This document shows positions 1 to 64,000 of a DNA stretch of 64,000 nucleotides, in pieces. The notes beneath the pieces are model-generated. The model searched no databases. It had not been told where the DNA came from and saw nothing but the letters and a program-made list of their open reading frames with translations. A program made the position numbers and the translations under genes. Origin of the DNA: an uncultured Bacteroidota bacterium (GTDB lineage Bacteria; Bacteroidota; Bacteroidia; 2-12-FULL-35-15); contig CAIYIS010000007.1 in NCBI GenBank assembly GCA_903926385.1, positions 71,614 to 135,613 of the forward strand, given 5' to 3'. How positions within the stretch are numbered: the first letter of the stretch is position 1; each line of letters starts with the position of its first letter.

Positions 1-752
1 CGAACGTTTGTATGCCACTTTCATTTTACTTCGCGGAGTAGAACGAAACATAGATTGTATCCGTTCAAAAAAAGAATTGATACCTTTTGATAAATCAGTT
101 CCGCGCTTGAATTGCTGAATAAAAACATAACCCATCAATGCACCGCCCAGATGAGCCAGATTACCTCCCACATTATTATACGAAGCCACACTCAGCACAT
201 CAATAAACAACACAAACAAGGCCACATATATTAATTTAACCTCTCCGATAAATAACATATTGATACGATAATGCGGCACCAATGTGGCTGCCGCAATAAT
301 AATAGCAGTAACTCCAGCCGATGCTCCCAGCAAATGTGTGCCGATAAATCCATGAAAAAACGGAAGCAGATTAAACAGCATTGTTATCAACCCTCCTGCT
401 ATTCCTCCCATCATATAGAGCGGAATTATTTTTCTGGAATCAGTAAAGTTGGTGAGTATTTGTCCAAACCAGAACAAAGTAACCATGTTCCAGAAAATAT
501 GCATCAGGTCGAAGTGAACAAACATATAAGTAATGAGTGTCCACGGACGGTAAATAAAACCTTCTATACTGATAGGAAGCGAAACAATATTGTTGTAAAA
601 ATCTTCAACCAACAATGTGCTTACACTGCCCCCGACAAAGAAAAAAAGTATTTTGGAAATACTGATAATTAAAAATACAGCAACATTGACAATGATTAAA
701 CGGGTAATAACATTGCCACTTTTTATTTTCTGCTTTATGTCTTCTATTATGT
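1..752 (-). CDS. rhomboid family intramembrane serine protease (C-terminal part runs off the window start)
   Basis: Continuous minus-strand frame from the ATG at 752-750. The translation has GASAGV (GxSG) and AHLGG(A)LMG motifs and multiple TM-like hydrophobic stretches. The plus-strand ORF 271-672 is antisense to it. Confidence 0.6.
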
Positions 753-5102: not shown

Positions 5103-5675
5103 CTAACCGTTTTTTATTGCTGTTGGCAAACCGAGTACTTTCCTTTTTAAGGATTGTACTTCATCTGTCAAGGATAGTACTTTCCTTATCAAGGATTGTA
5201 CTTCATCTGTCAAGGATAGTTCTTTCCTTATCAAGGATTGTACTTTATCTGTCAAGGATAGTTCTTTCCTTATCAAGGATTGTACTTTATCTGTCAAGGA
5301 TTGTACTTTCCTTATCAAGGATTGTACTTTATCTGTCAAGGATAGTACTTTCCTTATCAAGGATTGTACTTTATCTGTCAAGGATTGTACTTTCCTTATC
5401 AAGGATTGTACTTTATCTGTCAAGGATTGTACTTTCCTTATCAAGGATTGTACTTTATCTGTCAAGGATAGTACTTTCCTTATCAAGGATTGTACTTCAT
5501 CTGTCAAGGATAGTACTATTTTTAGGAAGGATAGTACTCCATTTAGTAAGCCGAGTACTTCCTTTAACAATTGGAGTACTCCATCAAACAGACCGAGTAC
5601 TCCATTTAACAAGTCGAGTACTCCATTTAACAGACCGAGTACTCCATTTAACAAGTCGGCACGCGCGATGTACAC
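5103..5675 (-). CDS. coiled-coil protein built from 21-nt (heptad) tandem repeats; coding status uncertain
   Basis: The minus frame gives canonical a/d leucine heptads (LNGVLGL.., SLTDKVQSLIRKVQ repeated many times) and a terminator follows the stop. The opposite strand is also open through the repeat (5117-5764), so frame alone cannot decide. Confidence 0.35.
   Translation of the reverse strand: MYIARADLLNGVLGLLNGVLDLLNGVLGLFDGVLQLLKEVLGLLNGVLSFLKIVLSLTDEVQSLIRKVLSLTDKVQSLIRKVQSLTDKVQSLIRKVQSLTDKVQSLIRKVLSLTDKVQSLIRKVQSLTDKVQSLIRKELSLTDKVQSLIRKELSLTDEVQSLIRKVLSLTDEVQSLKRKVLGLPTAIKNG
5110..5660. repeat. tandem repeat, 21-bp unit alternating as a 42-bp super-unit, ~25 copies
   Basis: Direct reading shows CAAGGATTGTACTTTATCTGT / CAAGGATAGTACTTTCCTTAT alternating, degenerating to AACAGACCGAGTACTCCATTT units toward 5660. 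Confidence 0.85.
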
Positions 5676-26195: not shown

Positions 26196-26544
26196 TTATC
26201 CTAATTAGCAAAAAGAGATTTTACCTTATACGGTAATTTTTATAGAAATCAATAATTTCGGAGGGGAGAAGAGTCGATTGAAAGTTGAAATGTTGGAAGT
26301 TTCAGGTATTAGGTTGTCATTATGAGCGCAGCAATTTCCATATTATCATTATTCAATAAACCTACTATTTATATTGCGTAAAATACGACAATAAAAGTCC
26401 GAATATTTCTGAACGGAGGTAATTGTTGCGGTTGGAAGTTAAAAGCAGGGGAATTAGAAATTTTAAGCACCGATATGAAGAGGGAGTTTGACAATTGGGG
26501 CATTCCGTTTCGGGACTTCTGTAATTATATTACATTTTCTTATC

Positions 26545-26780
26545 TTTAGTTTATAAATTCGTGTCTTGAGTTAATCAATTCGTGTCTCCAGATTATAAAT
26601 TCTTGTTTCCAGATTATAAATTCGTGACTTGAGGTAATCAATTCGTGTATTCAGTTTATGAATTCGTGTCTCCGGATTATAAATTCGTGTCTTGAGGTAA
26701 TCAATTCGTGTCTTCAGTTTATTAATTCGTGTCTCCAGATTACAAATTCGTGTCTCTAGTTTATGAATTCGTGCCAAGGT
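26545..26780. repeat. tandem array of about 11 copies of a 21-bp unit (consensus ATnAATTCGTGTCTCCAGATT)
   Basis: Direct reading: an invariant AATTCGTGTCT core with a variable 3' half. It lies in a 1.3-kb gene-free region upstream of hppA. There are no unique spacers, so it is not CRISPR. Confidence 0.85.
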
Positions 26781-42689: not shown

Positions 42690-42960
42690 TCACATTGTTG
42701 TTACAATAATTTCTCACATTGTTACAATATTATCTCACATTGTGAGGAGAATCTCTTACATTATTACAATAATCTCTCACATTCTTACAATAATGTCTTA
42801 CATTATTACGATAATGTCTCACATTGTTATAATAATCTCTAACATTATTACGAAAATTTCTTACATTGTTACAATAATTTATCACATTATTACGATAATG
42901 TCTTACATTATTACAACATTGCCTCTCATTATTACATTAATGTCTCACATCAATATAACA
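42690..42960. repeat. tandem array of about 13 copies of a 21-bp unit, each containing the palindrome ATTGT-n-ACAAT
   Basis: Units such as AATTTCTCACATTGTTACAAT, AATGTCTTACATTATTACGAT; the half-sites ATTGT/ACAAT are exact reverse complements. There are no unique spacers. Confidence 0.85.
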
Positions 42961-53470: not shown

Positions 53471-54673
53471 ATAGGCGTAATCGCTTAGGTATTCAAAAGG
53501 GGTATTTAATTTACCATCTATGCAAATGGATGCTCTGTTTATTACGTTGTCAGGGTCTTCGTTTATCAAACAAGGTAATACTCGTTCCATTAAATCTTTT
53601 CCAAAATCATCGCTTGAATCGCGAGGTAATTCACAAGGTAAATTATCTACTGCCATAATACAAACGGTATGTTTGTTAAATGGCAAATCTTCTTTGTCCT
53701 GTTTAATATTGTATCCGTAAAACGGATCAGCAATAGTACTCGAACGAATAGTGGTAGGTACGGAACCATTCATGTCGCAGGTAATATCTGCAATAACACT
53801 AATTCTGAAATCGTTTTCTTTTGTATCAGAAAGCTCAAACATACGAGGAGCTTTGGGGTCCCAGTAGTGCGATGAAATAAATATATCCGTCACCTTGGTA
53901 TACTGTCGGAAAATAGATTTAAAATGTTCAGGATGCTGAAAAAAGTCGTGCAGGTCGAAATTATGGTCATCCACACGTTCCACATAATCTCTCGGGTTTA
54001 GTTGACAATACACAGGTTCGCGGAAAGATGCCATAAGAAATTCTTCGGGAGTAACCTTGCGAATACGCAAAGCGCTTAAGGTTTCTATCACACCGTTAGC
54101 CACTCGTCCACCACCGGTAAGTGCTATTTTGATATTAGGTAATTTGGCACGTTTTAATTCTTCTTCCATTTCAGCACGGTCTCTGCAAATATTGGCAGGC
54201 TTAAGCTGGAACAAATCGTATTTTTTACCATAACCTAATATTCCGTTGTAAGCCCCTACAATGCCAGCATAACGACCAAAGCCGATAATACGATTGTTGT
54301 TTTTGTCTGTCAGCGTTTCGTAATCGATCATCTGAATTTTCTTTTCAATAAAAGCTTTCATCAGTTTCTGATTATGCGCTTGTTTTTTGATAGTATGCGA
54401 AAAGAAAAAGTATTTTTTCCCTGGAATCAACAAGTCTTTTGGCACCTCTTTAACTCCCATCAATATATCGCAGCCGCTTAGATCTTCTTTAAGCATCACC
54501 CCAAATGCCGTGTATTCGCTGTCGGCATAACATCTTATTTTGCTGGGTTGCACAAATATTTTAATAGAAGGATAAGTGCGCATTAACTCTGCACAGATTA
54601 ATGGAGTTAAGGGAACACGTTTATCAGGAGGATTCTTTTCTTCGCGTAGTACGCCAATTCTTAGTTTGTTCAT
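53468..54673 (-). CDS. NAD(P)-dependent dehydrogenase of the alanine dehydrogenase/PNT family (saccharopine/alanine dehydrogenase-like)
   Basis: N-terminal LREEKNPPDKRVPLTP and Rossmann ALTGGGRVANGV; about 400 aa. The specific substrate cannot be inferred. Confidence 0.5.
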   Translation of the reverse strand: MNKLRIGVLREEKNPPDKRVPLTPLICAELMRTYPSIKIFVQPSKIRCYADSEYTAFGVMLKEDLSGCDILMGVKEVPKDLLIPGKKYFFFSHTIKKQAHNQKLMKAFIEKKIQMIDYETLTDKNNNRIIGFGRYAGIVGAYNGILGYGKKYDLFQLKPANICRDRAEMEEELKRAKLPNIKIALTGGGRVANGVIETLSALRIRKVTPEEFLMASFREPVYCQLNPRDYVERVDDHNFDLHDFFQHPEHFKSIFRQYTKVTDIFISSHYWDPKAPRMFELSDTKENDFRISVIADITCDMNGSVPTTIRSSTIADPFYGYNIKQDKEDLPFNKHTVCIMAVDNLPCELPRDSSDDFGKDLMERVLPCLINEDPDNVINRASICIDGKLNTPFEYLSDYAY

Positions 54674-54689
54674 TTTATTACAATTTTAG

Positions 54690-54715
54690 GGGTGCAAAGA
54701 TAGTTTTAATTAGGA
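54690..54715 (-). promoter_or_regulatory. putative promoter (-7 TATCTTTG followed by GCACCCC) for the dehydrogenase gene
   Basis: The minus strand reads AAAACTATCTTTGCACCCCTAAAA, the same TTTGCACCCC context as upstream of hppA. Confidence 0.3.
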
Positions 54716-54869
54716 AAGGAGAACCTAATAGAGGGTGATATGCAGTATTGCAATTTTGCAAAATTCTTATATATGAAGAGTTATTCTCTTTTTTTAGTCT
54801 TAAAATTAATTTGCTTTAAATAAGGGTGCGATATTTGCGTATCTTTGCGCTCAGTTCTTTTAAACAATA

Positions 54870-55232
54870 GGGGTCGTACGGTTTTGACAGCGAGTGCGAT
54901 TTTTATGTAAGCATGTCGTGTGTTGTGAATATGACACGTAAATACTAATTCTCAAATTTCTATATGGCGAGTCTAACTACGCTATGGCTGCTTAATACCA
55001 AGTATTAAGTGCCTTTGTTTCCGGAGAAGCTCTGATCTTCTGCGTCTCCAGCGAAGCATCATAAACGAAGAAATAGTTGCGAAGAACTTCGATTCGCAAT
55101 GAGATAAAGAAGATAAGTAAACCTGTTGGCCTGCAAACTTGCCTAAGTTTAACGAAAATCAAAAGTAAGCTACACATGTAGAAAGCATATTAATTCCTTG
55201 TTTGGACGAGGGTTCGAATCCCTCCGACTCCA
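54870..55232 (+). ncRNA. ssrA: transfer-messenger RNA (tmRNA); tag peptide G-E-S-N-Y-A-M-A-A-stop
   Basis: The 5' end GGGGTCGTACGGTTTTGAC pairs with the 3' end CGACTCC-A. Internal tag ORF GGCGAGTCTAACTACGCTATGGCTGCTTAA; 3' tRNA-like T-arm GGACGAGGGTTCGAATCCCTCC. About 363 nt. Confidence 0.85.
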
Positions 55233-55295
55233 CTCCATGGGAAGGTTACATAAGTAGCCTTCCCTTTTTTGTTTCACCTGTAAGCGCTCTAATTC

Positions 55296-55700
55296 CTAAG
55301 ATTTCATTGCTATCACTTCTTTGAGCAAAGCGATGTCATTTTTTAGTTTTTCATTCTCTTTTTCCAATTCTTGCACTCGTGTGGTGAGTTCATTGCTTGC
55401 ATGTGGGCCAAATTCGGCTGGTAAAGTATCGGCAATTTCTCTGATGAAATTATACTTCAAAATCTGGCAAACATCGTATAGTGTACCCAACGGCAGCACC
55501 GGCTTTTTGAAAAAACCGGCAATGGTGGATGGTTTCATCCCCTGCATCCTTGCCCATCCCGATTGATAAAGCCTGTGATCTTTTACATATTTTCTTAGCA
55601 TTTCACCTACATGAGGCGGCTTGGCTCCGTTAAACGGTGTACGTTTGGTTGATGTTCGCGACATTTTTTTAATTAGTTTAGTTATCGTTTCTGACGGCAA
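55296..55700 (-). CDS. hypothetical small DNA-binding-like protein (putative HTH plus C-terminal leucine-zipper-like coiled coil)
   Basis: 134 aa, with a basic N-terminus, an HTH-like segment GEMLRKYVKDHRLYQSGWARMQGMKPSTIAG, and a C-terminal coiled coil ELEKENEKLKNDIALLKEVIAM. It lies directly 3' of ssrA. Confidence 0.4.
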   Translation of the reverse strand: MPSETITKLIKKMSRTSTKRTPFNGAKPPHVGEMLRKYVKDHRLYQSGWARMQGMKPSTIAGFFKKPVLPLGTLYDVCQILKYNFIREIADTLPAEFGPHASNELTTRVQELEKENEKLKNDIALLKEVIAMKS

Positions 55701-55719
55701 ATATACAAATTTAGAATTA

Positions 55720-55990
55720 GTGATACTTATAGTAGGTAATATAATTACTTTATAAGGGTAATTATATTTATTATATTAGGTAAATATTAATCTTTATATT
55801 GGTAATTATATTACTCAAAATTGGTAAAAGAATATATTTAAGTAGGTAATACGATTACTTAAAGTAAGTAATTATATTACTTATTAATAGTAATATGTTT
55901 ACCTTTATAAGGTAAGTATATTGCCTTTTATAATGAAATGAATTACTTTTTTTAGGTAAATGTATTCCTTATTATAGGGAATAATTAAAT
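55720..55990. repeat. AT-rich array of about 11 copies of a ~22-bp unit containing the palindrome GTAAT-n3-ATTAC
   Basis: Units GGTAATTATATTAC.., GGTAATACGATTAC.., AGTAATTATATTAC.. about 22 bp apart; half-sites GTAAT/ATTAC are exact reverse complements. It sits in the promoter region of the 55296-55700 gene. Confidence 0.7.
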
Positions 55991-56137
55991 TATAAAACTA
56001 TATTAGAGCTTAAGGGAATAATTATTCTAATAAGAATAGAGAGAAATTTAAAAAAGTGTATTAAATTAATGGATAACTCCTACTTGATGTACCCCCCTAA
56101 AGTGAGATGAAGTGATTCTGCTTCTAAAATAGGTTGG

Positions 56138-59100
56138 TTACTTAAGCACCGTAACACTTCCAATATATTTATGGTCTTCTTTGTGATTATCTTTTAAATT
56201 TACCACGTAAACATACACACCATCCTGCACCAAGTTCCCCATATAGGTTCCATCCCAGTGTTTAGATAAATCATCTCCATAAAATAACAGATTTCCCCAC
56301 CGGTCAAAAATTCTCATTTCGTAGGAAGTAATGCTTTCGCCCAAACCGTAAAACTCATCATTCACACCATCTCCGTTAGGAGTAAAAGCATCCGGAATAT
56401 AAAAAGTAAATACACCTTCTATAGAAATACAATGGGTTACAGTATCCGAACAATTCGCATTTGACGCGGTTAGTAACACGCAGTAAGAACCTATTTGAGA
56501 ATATTCATGTGTTGGATTTTTGGCACTACTGAAATTATTTGGCATTCCTGTATCTCCGAAATTCCAGCTCCACATAGTTGAATTGGTTGATAGATTAGTA
56601 AAATTAACAACCGGGAAAGTGATTAATGATGTCAATGGTGCTGTGAATTCAGCCACAGGCACCACATTAACTGTAACAGTTCCCGTTCCCGAACTAGAGC
56701 ACCCATTGGAGGTTCCGGTTACTGTATAAGTAGTTGTTGTGTCAGGAATTACTACTATATTGTTAGAAGTAGAGCCCGTATTCCACGAATAAGCAAGTGC
56801 TCCGTTGGCCGTAAGCACTGCTGAAGTACCTGCACACACCGTTACCGAATTTACACTAATTACAGGAAATTGATAAACCGTTATGGTTGCAGATGCAGTA
56901 GTGCTGCATCCCAATGCTGTTCCGGTTACAGTGTAACTTGTGGTAGCTGTTGGAAACACTGTAATGGCCGCAGTATTTGCCGCAGTATTCCATAAAAACG
57001 AAGTGGCATTACCCAACGCAGTTAAGGTTGCCGGTTGTCCTGCACAAGAAGAGATCGAATTTACAATAAGATTAGGAAGAGGATTAACCGTAACAGTTGA
57101 AACAGCTGTTGCCACACATCCAAGTGTTGAGCCGGTTACCGTATACGTAGTGGTTACAACAGGAGAGGCTGTTGCTGATGCTCCTGCAGCCGTTACTCCT
57201 GCACTCCATGTATAACTCACCGCTCCTGCTGCTGTCATGGTGGCCACAGCTCCGTTACATATTGTTGGTGAAGTAACGGTAACAATCGGAAGCGGATTAA
57301 CCAGCACCGATATGGTGTCTCTCGCACTTTCACAGCTAGCTATGGTTTGCGATACATAATAATTTGTTGTTCCTGCCACAAGTGTCGAAGGTGTTGGCGA
57401 AAGCGCATTTCCTGAGCCTCCTGCCGCAGCGGTGTACCAAAGCAAACCCGCACCGGTGGAAGTCAGGGCGGGTGCAACATCGTTCTGACAATAGGTAAGC
57501 GGTGAAACAACAACAGGTGGAGCAGGGGCACTAATGGTGACATTATAGCTGACTGCAGTTCCTGCACCACAAGTACCGGTTTCGGTAACAGAAACAGTTC
57601 CTACTCCGGCCGCACCAAAACTCACGGTTATCTGGTTTGTTCCTTGTCCGGCCGTTATGCTTGCTCCTGCCGGTACAGACCAGTTGAATGTAGAACCAGC
57701 AGTATTGGTTACAGAATATATAATACCTGTGGCATTCGGGCAAACAGGAGTAGTACCTGTGATGGCCGATGTTACGGGCAAAAGAGTAACCCCTACAGCT
57801 AAACTGACTGCTGTTCCCGGTCCGCAATTGTTTGTTTCGATCACAGAAACATTGCCACTGGTTACTCCAAAGGTTACTGTTATTTGATTGGTTCCTTGTC
57901 CGGCTGTAATGGTTGCACCTGCCGGAACGGTCCAGGCATAAGTGTTTCCAACTGTATTGGTAACTGAATAAACAACTCCTGTTGTATTTAAACATACAGT
58001 TGCAGGTCCTGTAATGACGGAGGTTGCAGGCAAAGAAGTTACCACAACAGCAAAGTTGACAGCCGCTCCCGGTCCGCAATTATTAGTTTCTATTACAGAA
58101 ACATTGCCTGAATTTGAACCGAAGGTTACAGTTATTTGATTGGTGCCTTGTCCTGCTGTGATACTTGCACCAACAGGAACTGCCCATGCATAGGTATTCC
58201 CAACAGTGTTGGTTACAGAAAACGTTACACCAGCTGTATTCGGACAAACAGGTGTAGTGCCTGTAATAGCCGATGTAACCGGTAAAGAGAATAAAGTAAC
58301 AGCAAAATTTACAGCTGCTCCCGGTCCGCAATTGTTGGTTTCTATTACGGAAACATTGCCCGCAGTCGCTCCAAAGTTTACTGTAATCTGGTTGGTGCCT
58401 TGGCCGGCAGTAATTGTTGCTCCTGCCGGAACGGTCCAGGCATAGGTATTTCCAACCGTATTGGTAACTGAATAAACAACTCCGGTGGCATTCGGGCAAA
58501 CAGGGGTAGTACCTGTAATGGCTGATGTAACAGGTAACGGAGAAATAGCAACAGCAAAGTTAACAGCCGCACCCGGTCCGCAATTATTGGTTTCTATTAC
58601 GGAAACATTGCCGGCATTGGTTCCAATGGTTACGGTTATCTGATTAGTCCCCTGACCGGCTGTAATGACAGAACCGGCTGGCACTGTCCATGCATAGGTT
58701 GAACCTGCTGTATTGGTAACCGAATAAATTACACCGGCAGTGTTTGGACAAACTGGTGTGGTGCCTGTGATAACTGATGTTACAGGTAAAGTGGTAACAC
58801 CAACAGCAAAGTTAACTGCCGCTCCCGGTCCGCAATTGTTTGTCTCAATTACTGAAACTGTTCCAGAAGTTACACCAAAGCTAACTGTAATTTGATTGGT
58901 ACCTTGACCGGCTGTTATGACTGCTCCTGCCGGAACAGTCCAGGCATAGGTATTTCCAATGGTGTTGGTAACAGAATAAGTAATACCTGTTGCATTCAAA
59001 CACACAGGTGTAATTCCTGTTATAGCTGATGTTGTTGGCAATGGAAAAATGGCAACAGCAAAGTTAACAGCTGCTCCCGGTCCGCAATTATTCGTTTCTA

Positions 59101-62100
59101 CAACTGAAACATTTCCCGGAGTAGTTCCAAAATCAACAGTGATCTGATTGGTGCCTTGTCCGGCTGTAATTGTTGCACCTGCCGGAACGGTCCAGGCATA
59201 AGTATTTCCAACCGTATTGGTAACTGAATAAACAACTCCTGTTGTATTAGGACAAACTGGTGTAGTGCCTGTGATGGCTGAAGTAACAGGTAATGAAAAA
59301 GTGGTTACAACAAAATTTACTGCTGTTCCTGGTCCGCAATTATTCGATTCGGCAACGGAAACAGTACCAGCAGTCGCTCCAAAGTTTACAGTAATCTGAT
59401 TAGTGCCTTGTCCTGCAGTAATCGTTGCTCCGGCAGGAACGGTCCAGGCATAAGTGTTTCCAACTGTATTGGTAACTGAATAAACAGCACCTGTTGCATT
59501 CGGGCAAACGGGAGTAGTGCCTGTAATGGTTGATGTGACAGGCAATGAATAAGTAGTTACAGCAAAATTTATGGCTGTTCCGGGTCCACAATTATTCGAT
59601 TCGACAACAGAAACAGTGCTTGCTGTTGCTCCAAAAGTTACTGTTATTTGGTTGGTGCCTTGTCCGGCTGTAATCGTAGCTCCTGCCGGAACGGTCCAGG
59701 CATAAGTATTTCCAACAGTGTTGGTGACTGAAAAAACAACTCCTACAGCATTCGGACAAACTGGTGTGGTGCCTGTGATGACTGATGTTACAGGTAACTG
59801 TGTAATCGTAACCGGGAAGTTAACGGCTGTTCCGGGTCCGCAATTGTTTGTCTCAATTACTGAAACTGTTCCAGAAGTTACACCAAAGCTAACTGTAATT
59901 TGATTGGTACCTTGACCGGCTGTTATGATTGCTCCTGCCGGAACAGTCCAGGCATAGGTATTTCCAATGGTGTTGGTAACAGAATAAGTAATGCCAGAGG
60001 CATTCAAACAAACCGGAGAAGAGCCTGTGATGGCTGATGTGGTTGGCAAAGGTGAAATGGCTACAGCAAAATTAACTGCCGGACCTGAACCGCACATATT
60101 GGTTTCAATTACTGAGACATTTCCCGGAGTGGCTCCGAAAGTAACGGTTATCTGATTGGTGCCTTGACCGGCTGTGATGGCAGCTCCTGTCGGAACAGTC
60201 CAGGCATAAGTATCTCCGGCAATATTGGTAACAGAATAAATTACCCCTGTGGTATTCGGACAAACTGGTGTGGTACCGGTAATGGCTGAAGTAACAGGTG
60301 GAGGAAGTATAGCAACAGCATAGTTAACTGTAGCTCCCACTCCGCATGTTCCCGTTTCGGTAACGGTAACATTTCCTCCCGTAGGGCCGAAGTTTACTGA
60401 AATTTGATTACTGCCTTGACCCGAAACGAGTGTAGCTCCTGCCGGAACTGTCCAGGCATAGGTACTGCCGGTGGTATTAACTACTGAAAAAAGAACTCCT
60501 GCAGCATTTGCACAAATAGGTGAAGTACCCGTGATAGCTGATGTAACTGGAAGTAAAGTAATAGCTACCGGAAGACTAACAGCAGCTCCTATTCCACACA
60601 CATTCGATTCGATAACAGAAACGGTGCCGCCTGCAGCTCCCCAATTGATGGCAATCTGATTTGTACCTTGCCCTGAAGCAATGGTAGCTCCGCCAGTTAC
60701 TGTCCAGCTGTATGTATTTCCAGCCACATTGGTAACCGAATAAGCTATACCGGGAGCATTGAGACAAACGGGCGAAGGGCCAATGATGGGTGTAGTTACA
60801 GGAATTGGTGTAACCACCAAGGCATAATTTACAGCAGGTCCCGGCCCGCAAACATTGGTTTCTACCACAGAAATGGTTCCTCCGGTTGTGCCGAAATTAA
60901 CGGTAATTTGATTAGTGCCTTGTCCGGCTGTAATGGTGGCTCCTGCCGGAACCGTCCAGGCATAGGTATCTCCAGGAGTATTGGTAACCGAATAACTAAC
61001 ACCTGCTGTGTTCGGACAAACAGGTGTGGTACCTGTGATGGCTGATGTAACAGGCAAAGGAGTAACAGCAACGGCCATGTTAACAGCTGCTCCGGGTCCG
61101 CAAATATTGGTTTGAACCACCGAAACGGTTCCGTTTGCACTTCCCCAGTTAACGGTTATCTGATTGCTACCTTGTCCGGCTGTGATGGTGGAACCTGCCG
61201 GAACGGTCCAGGCATAGGTGTTTCCAACAACATTAGTAACCGAATAAACCAATCCGGTTTGATTAGGACAAACGGGAGTGGTGCCTGCAATGGCTGATGT
61301 AACAGGTAAAGGGAAAATAGCAACTGGAAAATTAACTAAAACTCCCGGGCCGCAAACATTACTTTCTGTAACCGAAACATTGCCTCCTGTGCCGGCAAAG
61401 GTGACTGTAATCTGATTGGTACCTTGTCCGGAGGTAATAGTAGCACCTACCGGAACGGTCCAGGCATAGGTATCTCCGGGAACATTGGTAGCCGAATAAA
61501 TAACACCTGCAGCCGTAGGGCAAACGGGTGTGGTGCCTGTGATGGCTGAGGTAACGGGCAATTGAGTTACCACAACTGCAAGGTTAACGGCAGCTCCGGG
61601 TCCGCAAATATTGGTTTGAATAACAGAAATAGTTCCGTTGGCTCCGCCCCAGTTAACAGTTATCTGATTAGTGCCTTGTCCGGCTGTAATGGTGGCACCG
61701 GCCGGAACGGTCCAGGCATAGGTGTTTCCAACAACATTAGTAACCGAGTAAATCAATCCAGTTTGATTAGGACAAACGGGAGTGGTGCCTGCAATGGCTG
61801 AAGTAACAGGCAGAGGGAAGATAGCAACCGGAAAATTAACTGAAACTCCGGGTCCGCAAACATTGCTTTCTGTTACCGAAACATTGCCTCCTGTACCGGC
61901 AAAGGTTACTGTAATTTGATTGGTGCCTTGTCCGGATGTAATGGTAGCTCCAGCCGGAACGGTCCAGGCATAGGTATCTCCGGGAATATTGGTAACCGAA
62001 TAAACGACACCAGCAGCTGTAGGGCAAACGGGGGTGGTACCGGTGATGGCTGATGTAACTGGCAATTGAGTTACCACAACTGCAAGGTTAACAGCTGCTC

Positions 62101-64000
62101 CTGCTCCGCAAATATTGGTTTGAATCACCGAAACGGTTCCGTTTGCATTTCCCCAGTTAACTGTTATCTGATTAGTTCCTTGTCCGGCTGTGATGGAGGT
62201 TCCTGCCGGAACGGTCCAGGCATAGGTATCTCCAACAACATTGGTAACCGAAAAGATTAATCCGGTTTGATTAGGACAAACGGGAGTGGTGCCTGTGATG
62301 GCTGAGGTAACTGGTAAAGGAAAAATAGCCACCGGGAAGTTAACGGCCGGAGCAACTCCGCACGGGTTACTTTGTATCACCGACACATTGCCTCCTGTTC
62401 CGGCAAAGTTTACTGTAATTTGATTGGTGCCTTGTCCTGATGTAATGGTAGCTCCCGGAGGAACTGTCCAGGCATAAGTGCTTAATGCCACATTGGCCAC
62501 AGAATAAACAACTCCTGAAGCAGTAGGGCATACGGGTGTTGTTCCGGTAATAGGAGTGGCAACGGGCAATGGAGTAACGGAAACAGCCATGGTGATGGCC
62601 GGGTCGCTGCGGCAAATGTTAGACTGAATAACAGAAACGGTTCCACCTGTAGTGCCAAAATTAACAGTAATTTGATTTGTACCTTGCCCGGAAGTAATGG
62701 TAGCACCTGCCGGAACGGTCCATGTATAGGTTATTCCAGCAACAGCCGGAAGAGAATACACCATGCCGGTGGCGTTAGGACAAATAGGTGTTGGGCCGGT
62801 GATGGGTGCCGGAACAATAGTTACACCAATTACAGTAACCACTATTGGTTTTCGATAAGTGCCGGGGCAAAACCCTGCATAATAAGTGGCGGTAGCAAAC
62901 AAAGGAGGGGTGGTATAAGTAGGGCCTGTGGCTATGGGCGCTCCTCCAACCAAAGTTGTGTACCAATAAATGGTGGCACCAATAGGGCCATTTATAGAAG
63001 CCGTTAAAGTAGCAGTGTTTCCGTTACAGATGGTAATATCGGCCACGGTTATGGTATCGTGAGTAATGAGTTGATTTATAAGTCCGCTTGCACCTTTTGT
63101 TGCTCCGTTTGGAGGAAATTCAGTAAGTCCAGCTGAGTTTGTTGTTCCGTTGTTTCCACCATTTCCAATTTGAGTTATTGCTCCTCCTGCTGTGGCAAGG
63201 TAACCAGCACCGCCACCTCCACCAGGACCTTCAGCTTCAATACTGCCTGCAATAAGAAATTGTGTGCCCCCGGGGCCTCCGTTGACGGAAGCGGTAATGC
63301 CTGAAAGTGTTCCAACACTATTTATAATAATAGTTCCACCACCACCACCACCGGCAGCTCCATCAAATCCTGAATTTAAACAGGCTCCTCCAGGAGCTAC
63401 AATACTTCCCCCTCCGCTTAAAGTACCATAATTCATTATGTATACGATTCCGCCTCCTGGCATTCCAACACCAGCAGCTCCATTATCCCTGTCACCGGCA
63501 CCACCACCACCACCCATAAAAATTTTACCTGTAGAATAATCGAGCGGCCGTCCTCCTAATCCTCCGTTAGCTTGACGGTTATCTCCTCCCCATAAAGCAT
63601 TATTCGTTCCAGTAATCGTTGCATTCTGGTCTGTTAAAGAAGTGGAATAACCACCTCTTCCTCCACCTCCTGAAGTATGAGCTGAAAATCCAGGAGATTC
63701 CAAATCCCAGGCTGAAACCCAACCTGCACCTCCTGCAACACTTGGATTTCCTTGGCCATCCCAAGTAAGCAATGATGAAGCATTAGCACCACCACCACCA
63801 CCAGCATTATGACAATCACCACCACCACCTCCATTAGCGAAAGCTCCTCTACCATACTGCCCACCCAATGTATTGTAATCGGCACCATATCCTCCAATGC
63901 CTTCTCCTTTATTGGAGCCCACTGTGAAACTTGTTCCTGCATATTGTGTTCCTCCGAAGCCAGTGGGGTTAAGGGGAGCCAAACCGCCTCCCCTGAAACC
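56138..64000 (-). CDS. giant T9SS type B substrate / adhesin (over 2614 aa; the N-terminus continues beyond the window end)
   Basis: The N-terminus is Gly-rich. About 25 tandem 76-aa Ig/PKD-like repeats follow (..PVTSAITGTTPVCPNxxGVxYSVTNxxGxTYAWTVPAGATITAGQGTNQITVxFG..). After further Ig-like repeats come a PKD domain (WSWNFGDTG...HEY...GSY) and a type B CTD (FTPNGDGVNDEF...FDRWGNLLF..WDGT..GVYVYVV). Confidence 0.85.
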   Translation of the reverse strand, partial: GFRGGGLAPLNPTGFGGTQYAGTSFTVGSNKGEGIGGYGADYNTLGGQYGRGAFANGGGGGDCHNAGGGGGANASSLLTWDGQGNPSVAGGAGWVSAWDLESPGFSAHTSGGGGRGGYSTSLTDQNATITGTNNALWGGDNRQANGGLGGRPLDYSTGKIFMGGGGGAGDRDNGAAGVGMPGGGIVYIMNYGTLSGGGSIVAPGGACLNSGFDGAAGGGGGGTIIINSVGTLSGITASVNGGPGGTQFLIAGSIEAEGPGGGGGAGYLATAGGAITQIGNGGNNGTTNSAGLTEFPPNGATKGASGLINQLITHDTITVADITICNGNTATLTASINGPIGATIYWYTTLVGGAPIATGPTYTTPPLFATATYYAGFCPGTYRKPIVVTVIGVTIVPAPITGPTPICPNATGMVYSLPAVAGITYTWTVPAGATITSGQGTNQITVNFGTTGGTVSVIQSNICRSDPAITMAVSVTPLPVATPITGTTPVCPTASGVVYSVANVALSTYAWTVPPGATITSGQGTNQITVNFAGTGGNVSVIQSNPCGVAPAVNFPVAIFPLPVTSAITGTTPVCPNQTGLIFSVTNVVGDTYAWTVPAGTSITAGQGTNQITVNWGNANGTVSVIQTNICGAGAAVNLAVVVTQLPVTSAITGTTPVCPTAAGVVYSVTNIPGDTYAWTVPAGATITSGQGTNQITVTFAGTGGNVSVTESNVCGPGVSVNFPVAIFPLPVTSAIAGTTPVCPNQTGLIYSVTNVVGNTYAWTVPAGATITAGQGTNQITVNWGGANGTISVIQTNICGPGAAVNLAVVVTQLPVTSAITGTTPVCPTAAGVIYSATNVPGDTYAWTVPVGATITSGQGTNQITVTFAGTGGNVSVTESNVCGPGVLVNFPVAIFPLPVTSAIAGTTPVCPNQTGLVYSVTNVVGNTYAWTVPAGSTITAGQGSNQITVNWGSANGTVSVVQTNICGPGAAVNMAVAVTPLPVTSAITGTTPVCPNTAGVSYSVTNTPGDTYAWTVPAGATITAGQGTNQITVNFGTTGGTISVVETNVCGPGPAVNYALVVTPIPVTTPIIGPSPVCLNAPGIAYSVTNVAGNTYSWTVTGGATIASGQGTNQIAINWGAAGGTVSVIESNVCGIGAAVSLPVAITLLPVTSAITGTSPICANAAGVLFSVVNTTGSTYAWTVPAGATLVSGQGSNQISVNFGPTGGNVTVTETGTCGVGATVNYAVAILPPPVTSAITGTTPVCPNTTGVIYSVTNIAGDTYAWTVPTGAAITAGQGTNQITVTFGATPGNVSVIETNMCGSGPAVNFAVAISPLPTTSAITGSSPVCLNASGITYSVTNTIGNTYAWTVPAGAIITAGQGTNQITVSFGVTSGTVSVIETNNCGPGTAVNFPVTITQLPVTSVITGTTPVCPNAVGVVFSVTNTVGNTYAWTVPAGATITAGQGTNQITVTFGATASTVSVVESNNCGPGTAINFAVTTYSLPVTSTITGTTPVCPNATGAVYSVTNTVGNTYAWTVPAGATITAGQGTNQITVNFGATAGTVSVAESNNCGPGTAVNFVVTTFSLPVTSAITGTTPVCPNTTGVVYSVTNTVGNTYAWTVPAGATITAGQGTNQITVDFGTTPGNVSVVETNNCGPGAAVNFAVAIFPLPTTSAITGITPVCLNATGITYSVTNTIGNTYAWTVPAGAVITAGQGTNQITVSFGVTSGTVSVIETNNCGPGAAVNFAVGVTTLPVTSVITGTTPVCPNTAGVIYSVTNTAGSTYAWTVPAGSVITAGQGTNQITVTIGTNAGNVSVIETNNCGPGAAVNFAVAISPLPVTSAITGTTPVCPNATGVVYSVTNTVGNTYAWTVPAGATITAGQGTNQITVNFGATAGNVSVIETNNCGPGAAVNFAVTLFSLPVTSAITGTTPVCPNTAGVTFSVTNTVGNTYAWAVPVGASITAGQGTNQITVTFGSNSGNVSVIETNNCGPGAAVNFAVVVTSLPATSVITGPATVCLNTTGVVYSVTNTVGNTYAWTVPAGATITAGQGTNQITVTFGVTSGNVSVIETNNCGPGTAVSLAVGVTLLPVTSAITGTTPVCPNATGIIYSVTNTAGSTFNWSVPAGASITAGQGTNQITVSFGAAGVGTVSVTETGTCGAGTAVSYNVTISAPAPPVVVSPLTYCQNDVAPALTSTGAGLLWYTAAAGGSGNALSPTPSTLVAGTTNYYVSQTIASCESARDTISVLVNPLPIVTVTSPTICNGAVATMTAAGAVSYTWSAGVTAAGASATASPVVTTTYTVTGSTLGCVATAVSTVTVNPLPNLIVNSISSCAGQPATLTALGNATSFLWNTAANTAAITVFPTATTSYTVTGTALGCSTTASATITVYQFPVISVNSVTVCAGTSAVLTANGALAYSWNTGSTSNNIVVIPDTTTTYTVTGTSNGCSSSGTGTVTVNVVPVAEFTAPLTSLITFPVVNFTNLSTNSTMWSWNFGDTGMPNNFSSAKNPTHEYSQIGSYCVLLTASNANCSDTVTHCISIEGVFTFYIPDAFTPNGDGVNDEFYGLGESITSYEMRIFDRWGNLLFYGDDLSKHWDGTYMGNLVQDGVYVYVVNLKDNHKEDHKYIGSVTVLK
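57200..62810. repeat. about 25 near-identical 228-bp tandem repeats inside the giant adhesin gene
   Basis: DNA-level periodicity of 228 bp (76 codons) with high identity. It generates dozens of spurious ORFs in all other frames. Confidence 0.8.

Follow-up and report, generated by a model that had tools for sequence, protein, structure and literature searches.

The DNA analysed here, referred to as the window, is a stretch of 64,000 nucleotides from an uncultured Bacteroidota bacterium (GenBank assembly GCA_903926385.1, contig CAIYIS010000007.1, positions 71,614 to 135,613 of the forward strand). Between the gene for transfer-messenger RNA (tmRNA), ssrA, and a very large adhesin gene it carries a small gene encoding a protein with a helix-turn-helix (HTH) domain and a C-terminal leucine zipper (the HTH-zipper gene and protein), and upstream of this gene lies a tandem array of 22-bp units. 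This array is probably the cognate multi-site operator of the adjacent protein: comparison of related loci suggests that zipper-held dimers coat the array at their own promoter and thereby autoregulate their gene. Array, promoter and gene most likely form a self-contained, stand-alone chromosomal module of ~0.7 kb. Systems in which a protein binds tandem cognate sites at the promoter of its own gene are known; unusual here are the strict register of the 21/22-bp arrays, with up to 16 units, the speed at which their motifs turn over, and the joint swapping of DNA-reading head and array.

The 22-bp array

The original prediction, made from the letters of the window alone, had described an AT-rich array with a spacing of roughly 22 bp, and this stands: thirteen units are held in a strict 22-bp register, and the GC content of the intergenic region 55661-56140 is 21.9% compared with 38.5% for the whole window. 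The array was delimited by a printout of the register, phase and shuffle statistics, Tandem Repeats Finder (TRF) and a stack of the units:

55709..55994, unstranded: array of 13 units in exact 22-bp register
55736..55748, unstranded: exact palindrome GTAATATAATTAC
55802..55814, unstranded: exact palindrome GTAATTATATTAC
55846..55858, unstranded: exact palindrome GTAATACGATTAC
55868..55880, unstranded: exact palindrome GTAATTATATTAC
55890..55902, unstranded: GTAATATGTTTAC, the looser GTAA-N5-TTAC form

Eleven clearer units span 55731-55972, the two end units being degenerate, and TRF reported periods of 22/23/44. The unit consensus on the plus strand reads a-GGTAAT-nnn-ATTAC-c/t-T. With the register printed from 55731, (G)GTAA is found at 55736+22k for k = 0-8 and 10. 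Within 55700-56000, 10 of 11 GTAA words fall into one phase modulo 22, the maximum in 2000 dinucleotide-preserving shuffles being 4. Furthermore, the lag-22 self-identity of 55731-55994 is 0.558 (0.355 ± 0.030 in shuffled sequence, z = 6.9) and reaches 0.60 at lag 44. The array and its period are thus confirmed to be highly non-random.

Exact GTAAT-N3-ATTAC is found in four array units and once elsewhere (at 26521), with a chance expectation of 0.14 per window; the claim that each of about 11 units contains the exact inverted repeat was therefore too strong. The rest are degenerate; over the whole array, 10 units preserve the GGTAA half, and about half of those the ATTAC half. Nor does the array fill the whole 400-bp promoter region, as had been proposed, since it takes up ~286 bp of the ~470-bp AT-rich gap upstream of the gene (55665-56137), which is bounded by the 3' end of the adhesin gene at 56138. 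In other assemblies the array is 100% identical (three cases) or differs by one base (two more). Being near-invariant, it appears to be stable and no slippage hot-spot, with no sign of copy-number instability.

Arrays upstream of the gene across the family

The family was sampled at 18 loci (given below by their L numbers), taken from contigs encoding members and from a metagenome scan with an alignment of the HTH only. All 18 loci have, within 400 bp upstream of the gene, a 176-bp segment with a self-identity of 0.45-0.90 at lags of 20..23, the maximum among 674 control segments from the same loci being 0.416. All composition-matched shuffles (300 per locus) were exceeded in 17 of the 18; the exception is L033, which has a period of 42 bp with 0.82 identity. 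The period is 22 bp in the clade whose proteins are at least 44% identical to the window protein and 21 bp in remoter clades. The arrays comprise 6-16 units, and some are nearly homogeneous (lag identity 0.90 in L027, 0.85 in L013).

In the orthologues (protein identity to the window protein 79% in L005/L019, 72% in L009/L020, 71% in L006/7/8), the gene is immediately preceded by an AT-rich array with a 22-bp period, made up of GTAA-N5-TTAC units. A search for similar arrays elsewhere had been proposed as a check of the original prediction, and L019, L020 and L006 indeed carry them. Allowing up to one mismatch, GTAA-N5-TTAC occurs 7, 7, 6 and 3 times in the orthologue group compared with 0.3-0.7 times in shuffles, i.e., approximately 10-fold enriched. 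In the pooled consensus, a-(A/G)GTAA(T)-nnn-(A)TTAC(C/T)T, the dyad core is kept and the spacers drift. Array and gene are all that these loci have in common with the window, the flanks being unrelated: the genes in L005/L019 and L009/L020 (L009 comes from a metagenome-assembled genome of Bacteroidota) lie beside a divergent RNase P RNA gene (rnpB, recognized with Rfam), and the module in L006/7/8 follows the terminator of an unrelated gene.

As for the surroundings of these loci, the array lies between the gene and rnpB in L005:3686-4440, L009:1-710 and L020, with the 5' end of rnpB ~70 bp from the array. A stable RNA gene (ssrA, rnpB) is the neighbour in two of three orthologue contexts, which may be chance or a preferred neighbourhood. 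In the clade with 44-59% identity, a conserved gene for a 163-aa protein precedes a terminator, the array and the HTH-zipper gene (L027:1593-2084, L022:1726-2217; also L011, L012, L021, L024, L026, L028). The 163-aa protein matched no family in Pfam or PADLOC, lacks a homologue in the window and is unrelated to the 238-aa open reading frame (ORF) beside the array at 42.7 kb (see below). More distant members (L013:4001-5702, L015, L017; ~27% identity) are encoded in an operon DUF4922-[HTH-zipper]-SpoIID, which is preceded by an array of 21-bp period (in L013, 11 units that are nearly identical) and by a TAnnTTTG promoter box.

Joint replacement of array and DNA-reading head

The unit motifs differ from locus to locus, and most of those inspected hold a dyad:

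L026: GATAGTTTAACTATC
L027: GGAGTTTAACTAC
L024 and L028: TTAGGCA-N3-TGCCTAA
L022: TTATC...GATAA
L013: GTATT-N6-AATAC

Two pairs of loci are mosaics in this respect. L024 and L027 are 89% identical over 1.7 kb upstream, and their 163-aa proteins are 96.6% identical, yet their arrays are unalignable. In the head of their HTH-zipper proteins, which extends to the TLF motif, 26 of 58 residues differ (62 nt changes); the tails have no amino acid and 2 nt changes in 60 codons. L021 and L022 differ in their arrays as well, with 22 of 49 residues changed in the head and 1 of 61 in the tail. In both pairs, the zipper half is 98-100% identical. Judged from these comparisons, the array and the DNA-reading head are inherited and replaced as one unit, as would be expected if the head reads the array, and this co-replacement is the strongest comparative stand-in for binding.

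An array that acts without the neighbouring protein, either as a minisatellite generated by slippage or as a curved AT-rich upstream element that tunes the promoter, possibly via its copy number, is most improbable. The extreme AT-richness of the array DNA, the nearly perfect tandem copies in several family arrays, as after recent expansion, and the occurrence of other ~21-bp arrays in the window that are unrelated to the family would all be compatible with it. Such an array, however, would not be expected to be tied to one protein family in 18 of 18 loci, to conserve its dyad core across orthologues while the spacers drift, or to be replaced together with the HTH head; moreover, no copy-number variation was seen among five assemblies of the window's population.

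The HTH-zipper protein

The window protein is an XRE (Cro/C1) HTH protein by its predicted fold. Modelling with AlphaFold2 (AF2) on a 30-sequence alignment gave a pLDDT of 81 overall and >90 over residues 20-70; a model based on a 6-sequence alignment (pLDDT 61) was too poor and was set aside. The predicted helices cover residues 19-29, 34-41, 45-53, 59-69 and 73-79, followed by one long helix at 92-121, corresponding to a five-helix Cro/C1 (XRE) HTH at residues ~18-80 and a C-terminal leucine zipper at 92-121. In the PDB, Foldseek matched the model with HipB, SinR, C.AhdI, C.BclI, VanU, ClgR and lambda cI (TM-target 0.6-0.7 for HipB, C.AhdI, SinR and VanU), and in a viral library with phage XRE or CI-like proteins. 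The family profile, compared with the PDB, matched VanU (3tyr) and HipB, and Pfam recognized an HTH in 17 of 63 family members (HTH_26 in 12, HTH_3 in 5). The window protein itself matched no family above threshold in Pfam, NCBIfam, PHROGs or PADLOC; its sub-threshold matches were bZIP-type on residues 91-121 and a weak HipB match on 23-72. The small HTH/coiled-coil protein that had been proposed is thus borne out by AF2, Foldseek and the PDB profile as an XRE HTH fold joined to a four-heptad zipper.

In the zipper, L93/L100/L107/L114 occupy the d positions and V97, N104, I111 and I118 the a positions, N104 being invariant in the close homologue group. According to the rules established for the GCN4 coiled coil, a core asparagine at position a promotes parallel dimerization in register. 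By analogy, the four heptads of the zipper would form a parallel dimer. The match to bZIP_1 (19.8 bits, with a cut-off of 27.6) covers the zipper part only, and the segment before the zipper, LPAEFGPHASNE, is acidic or proline-rich and contains no contiguous basic region. A bZIP transcription factor was therefore rejected, as a basic region contiguous with the zipper was not found.

Gene start and promoter

The gene is monocistronic, with a terminator behind it. The -7 promoter box of Bacteroidetes has the consensus TAnnTTTG, and two candidates were identified by sequence match directly downstream of the array, 49 and 41 nt upstream of the ATG:

55296..55664, minus strand: HTH-zipper gene, 122 aa (ORF list, homologues, Pfam on family members, PDB profile, AF2, Foldseek)
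55713-55706, minus strand: -7 box candidate TAAATTTG
55705-55698, minus strand: -7 box candidate TATATTTG

The start at ATG 55664 gives 122 aa, whereas the database annotation has 134 aa, starting from a TTG at 55700. Four of five homologue clusters begin at the residue aligned with ATG 55664 (MSR.../MAR...). Furthermore, the TTG of the longer model (55698-55700) falls inside a candidate -7 box, which makes 122 aa the better gene model and argues against the size of 134 aa given in the original prediction.

TAnnTTTG boxes are present 41-49 nt upstream of the ATG in all four members of the orthologue group including the window (at -41 to -44 in L019, L020 and L006). In L006 and L020, the -33 region is overlain by a perfect GGTAATTATATTAC(C) whose end is 8-9 nt upstream of the box; in the window, this distance is 24 nt for the last perfect palindrome, and a degenerate unit spans the -33 region. 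In the orthologue group, the array accordingly placed ends at or over the -33 region of a putative Bacteroidetes-type promoter. A scan for sigma-70 promoters returned 6 sites with 5.9 expected, the sigma-70 model being uninformative for Bacteroidetes-type sequence.

A model of autoregulation

The autoregulated operator array, one of the possibilities named in the original prediction, is supported by the comparison: arrays in 18 of 18 loci, the motif kept among orthologues, swaps of head together with array, and an array abutting or overlapping the promoter in the orthologue group. According to this model, a zipper-held dimer would place its two HTH heads on one dyad unit (GGTAAT-N3-ATTACC), the half-sites being approximately one helical turn apart as in the 434 and P22 operators. 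As a unit of 22 bp corresponds to ~2.1 turns, successive dimers (up to 13) would sit on nearly the same face of the DNA, where neighbours could contact one another and bind cooperatively. The promoter-proximal units overlap or reach the -33 region, so that occupancy would feed back on the transcription of the gene itself. Repression is the most likely sign: a filled array would shut the promoter, resulting in steep cooperative autorepression. That the protein physically binds the array, that it does so as a dimer and cooperatively, and in which direction it regulates the gene is what we infer from the sequence comparison.

Several observations weigh against this model. The link of the protein to the array comes from comparative evidence only, and the recognition helix of L028 resembles that of L027, yet its motif resembles that of L024, so that similarity of recognition helices does not map cleanly onto similarity of motifs. 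Good palindromes are present in only 4-5 of 13 units, and the TTAC half is poorly kept; not all units need therefore be occupied. The clade with 44-59% identity has no exact TAnnTTTG box, and its arrays run almost to the start codon; with this different geometry, the sign of regulation would not be uniform across the family. The window holds three 21-bp arrays without a family gene nearby, i.e., such arrays also arise here for other reasons. Finally, thirteen sites far exceed the needs of simple autorepression, which suggests an additional or different role.

Such a different role, the main alternative to the model, could be that of a structural landmark, with the coated array serving mainly as a centromere-like element, for anchoring or bridging of the chromosome, or as an identity or incompatibility tag, and autoregulation being a by-product. 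The module would then operate in the manner of ParR/parC, SopB/sopC or RacA/ram. Indeed, 6-16 phased sites are on the scale of plasmid centromeres and iteron arrays rather than of ordinary operators, and near-homogeneous arrays (as in L027 and L013) imply ongoing concerted evolution. Specificity diversifies fast, and array and reading head swap as one cassette, as is typical of systems in which cross-talk is harmful (partition, incompatibility, immunity). Furthermore, the gene is solitary, and the window contains no operon that would be an obvious target. Nevertheless, we regard a mainly structural role as unlikely: none of the orthologue loci has a gene for an NTPase of the ParA, ParM or TubZ type or for another partner next to the module, the fold is an XRE HTH rather than a ribbon-helix-helix (RHH) or ParB fold, nothing points to a second array that could serve for bridging, and the operon with SpoIID in the distant clade fits an ordinary transcription factor.

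Somewhat more generally, and tentatively, the modules may belong to a widespread class of units consisting of a reader and an array, with 6-16 private sites, in which head and array co-diversify and are exchanged as one recombination cassette. This would point to selection for private specificities, as in a chromosomal system of identity, insulation or anchoring, rather than to ordinary regulation. We consider this a speculative possibility; determinants of plasmid incompatibility and phage immunity would be its analogues.

The junction with ssrA

The array of the window lies on the flank of the gene away from ssrA. The original prediction had the gene directly following tmRNA; in fact it lies on the minus strand and is convergent with ssrA:

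54870..55235, plus strand: ssrA (tmRNA gene; ARAGORN; Rfam RF00023, 135.5 bits), context outside the module
55239..55274, plus strand: ssrA terminator, located where the two genes converge and consisting of a G+C-rich hairpin with a T-run after it

As the locus adjoins ssrA and 22-bp phased repeats in AT-rich DNA (here 13 units at 22% GC) are the classical geometry of iterons, one could think of an iteron-type origin, or of what is left of the attachment site of a mobile element integrated at the 3' end of ssrA, the protein being the Rep or regulator of this element. Such an origin or remnant is extremely unlikely. No Rep, integrase or Par gene was found among the ORFs and gene calls next to the module, the orthologous modules lie beside rnpB or ordinary genes and not ssrA, and the 122-aa protein matched no Rep family in Pfam, NCBIfam, PHROGs or Foldseek. 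The contig L001, which belongs to the same genome, overlaps the window from ~45.3 kb and extends ~1.7 kb past its end. No match of at least 12 nt to the last 62 nt of ssrA was found in the 64-kb window and L001, and no integrase among the genes called on L001, so that the check beyond the window that had been proposed yielded neither an integrase nor a duplicated ssrA 3' end up to ~1.7 kb past its end. With tblastn, no relative was detected in 72,556 plasmids or 50,697 phages, and a protein scan of IMG/VR returned no relative either. Taken together with the lack of a DnaA cluster, these results do not support the island proposed at ssrA. A chromosomal origin was rejected, given the chance-level number of DnaA boxes (21 observed in the window, 21.5 expected, none in 54000-57000) and the lack of a turn in GC skew.

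A search of IMG/VR with a DNA pattern retrieved only L035, an unrelated but genuine 22-bp iteron origin, which illustrates what a true iteron locus looks like and what the window locus lacks. In L035:10100-10450, an AT-rich core lies between two sets of 22-bp iterons (GTTACCAAYCCTTCGTAAAACT), four in one orientation and four inverted, and the neighbouring genes encode a 453-aa Rep-like, a 121-aa and a 226-aa ParA-like protein (identities judged from sequence and size).

An alternative junction at ssrA could also be taken in favour of a mobile element. L004:780-1860 and L018:700-1684 contain the identical array, gene and terminator and depart from the window 12 nt inside the ssrA 3' end (...TGGAGTGGAGTC at the junction followed by CACCAACC..., compare window 55222-55235), continuing into a complete gene for a 230-aa IS1-family transposase. 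The two contigs start at the same base, L004 with a Nextera adapter, and possibly stem from one read set rather than being independent. An insertion between ssrA and the module may be present in some cells. As the 12-nt ssrA fragment stays with the module, the most straightforward interpretation would put the module on the chromosomal side of the insertion, outside the inserted DNA.

Comparison with known systems

In working principle, the repressors of lambda, 434 and P22, HipB (with the four hipBA operators), SinR and the C-proteins with their C-boxes are closest to the predicted autoregulated module. They share with it the five-helix HTH, dyad sites of 13-17 bp, the phasing of sites on one face of the DNA over their own promoter, and autoregulation (predicted here). 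However, these Cro/C1 systems have 2-4 operators compared with 6-16 in a strict 21/22-bp tandem array in the window family, and dimerize via a globular domain or hook rather than via a C-terminal leucine zipper (as predicted here). Unlike them, the window locus has no partner toxin, restriction-modification or phage genes, and a known toxin-antitoxin antitoxin was rejected, as there is no partner gene.

In geometry and number of sites, the array resembles those of iterons and centromeres (R6K, pPS10, ParR/parC, sopC), judged by analogy. Iteron arrays (R6K, pPS10, RK2, pSC101) likewise consist of ~22-bp tandem units in AT-rich DNA beside the gene of their binder, with autoregulation and fast divergence of specificity. 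Nevertheless, iterons are arranged as direct repeats, and the proteins that bind them are winged-helix Rep monomers of 25-50 kDa, whereas the window has palindromes and a 14-kDa XRE HTH protein, and no DnaA boxes, plasmid context or Rep are present at its locus. Partition systems (ParR/parC of R1, omega/heptads of pSM19035, TubR/tubC, SopB/sopC) also have ~10 phased units upstream of their own gene, and dimers of their binders coat the array into a higher-order complex and repress their own promoter; sopC comprises 12 units of 43 bp, each with an inverted repeat, as do the window units. In contrast to these systems, the window module is chromosomal and stand-alone, has no ParA, ParM or TubZ partner, and encodes an XRE HTH instead of an RHH, ParB or winged HTH. 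Membership among Rep, ParB or ParR proteins was rejected, because the defining partner genes were looked for and not found.

RacA/ram and MatP/matS combine a small DNA-binding head and a C-terminal coiled coil with palindromic sites as well, and matS is also a 13-bp 5-N3-5 palindrome. Their sites, however, are dispersed over hundreds of kb instead of being gathered in one promoter array, and the proteins are unrelated in sequence. The four-heptad zipper with an asparagine at a core a position is shared with eukaryotic and viral bZIP proteins; unlike in bZIP, the DNA would be read by a separate HTH domain, with no basic region next to the zipper.

Extent of the family

A word-indexed search of 5.8 billion proteins yielded six clusters, none of them named. 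At E ≤ 1e-3, an exhaustive HMMER profile search detected 533 cluster representatives (clustering at 50% identity), of which 129 also passed E ≤ 1e-10. Almost all of the matches are 105-125 aa long, at least one (P0014) being an obvious repeat artefact. A few tandem forms of ~200 aa have two HTHs: in P0045, P0049, P0066 and others (~200-250 aa), two tandem HTH heads precede the C-terminal coiled coil, and these variants may be single-chain "dimers". A scan of genome contigs with the full-length alignment returned mostly coiled-coil pattern matches, with at least one true relative (L009).

No Pfam or NCBIfam family covers the whole protein, and the sources give the family no name. We found no description of the HTH-zipper family or its arrays in the literature; a survey of prokaryotic satellites (PMC6749651) mentions neither Bacteroidetes nor 21/22-bp units nor promoters. 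The family, seen mostly in Bacteroidota-type sequence, is thus previously undescribed.

Neighbouring genes and other arrays of the window

The adhesin gene beyond the gap lies on the minus strand, is very large and has internal repeats of 252 bp. The full cell-surface protein, as seen in L001, comprises 2828 aa with Ig_7, PKD and CHU_C domains, and the next gene encodes a U32 peptidase. The region from 56138 to 64000, continuing in L001, contains ~19 tandem 252-bp (84-aa) Ig/PKD-like repeats and has a GC content of 45-49% compared with 38% for the window; the C-terminal domain is CHU_C (type IX secretion).

Arrays with a 21-bp period seem to be common in the source organism. The other three in the window were considered as parts of the same system and rejected, since their units can be read as ORFs made of heptad repeats and no family member is near:

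26543-26773: a tandem run of eleven 21-bp units (core AATTCGTGTCT), in a gap of 1.3 kb devoid of long ORFs; read on the minus strand, a 68-aa heptad-repeat ORF (LETRIYN x9); no Rfam match
42701-42950: twelve tandem 21-bp units, each with the palindrome TAATGT-N3-ACATTA, between the 3' ends of the 238-aa ORF and a PIN-domain toxin/antitoxin pair; the units are also heptad-repeat ORFs (NNVRDYY), and no HTH-zipper family gene is near
5134-5658: ~25 tandem 21/42-bp units, open in several frames; a minus-strand ORF of 190 aa consists of SLTDKVQSLIRKVQ repeats; the array is either a gene for a repeat protein resembling a coiled coil or a satellite without coding function

Outside the focal array, an exact GTAATTATATTAC occurs only at 26521-26533, 10 bp from the left edge of the first of these arrays. 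Another 21-bp tandem array (TTTCTTCGGTCTTACTTAACG) was found in L004:2030-2183, past the IS1-like gene.

Implications

For annotation, the analysis corrects the start codon of the gene (122 instead of 134 aa) and removes the apparent signal of an island at ssrA. If the proposed link of protein and array holds, one rule would tie protein to site for a family that has neither a Pfam entry nor a name, and the cognate site of a member could be read from the 21/22-bp array upstream of its gene, as in the 18 loci examined. The two natural mosaics, in which the same zipper half is combined with a different head and array, represent ready-made specificity swaps for DNA reading by XRE proteins. Among chromosomal regulators that stand alone, such a very large number of sites and so fast a turnover of specificity are unusual, and the family may have a function beyond autoregulation.

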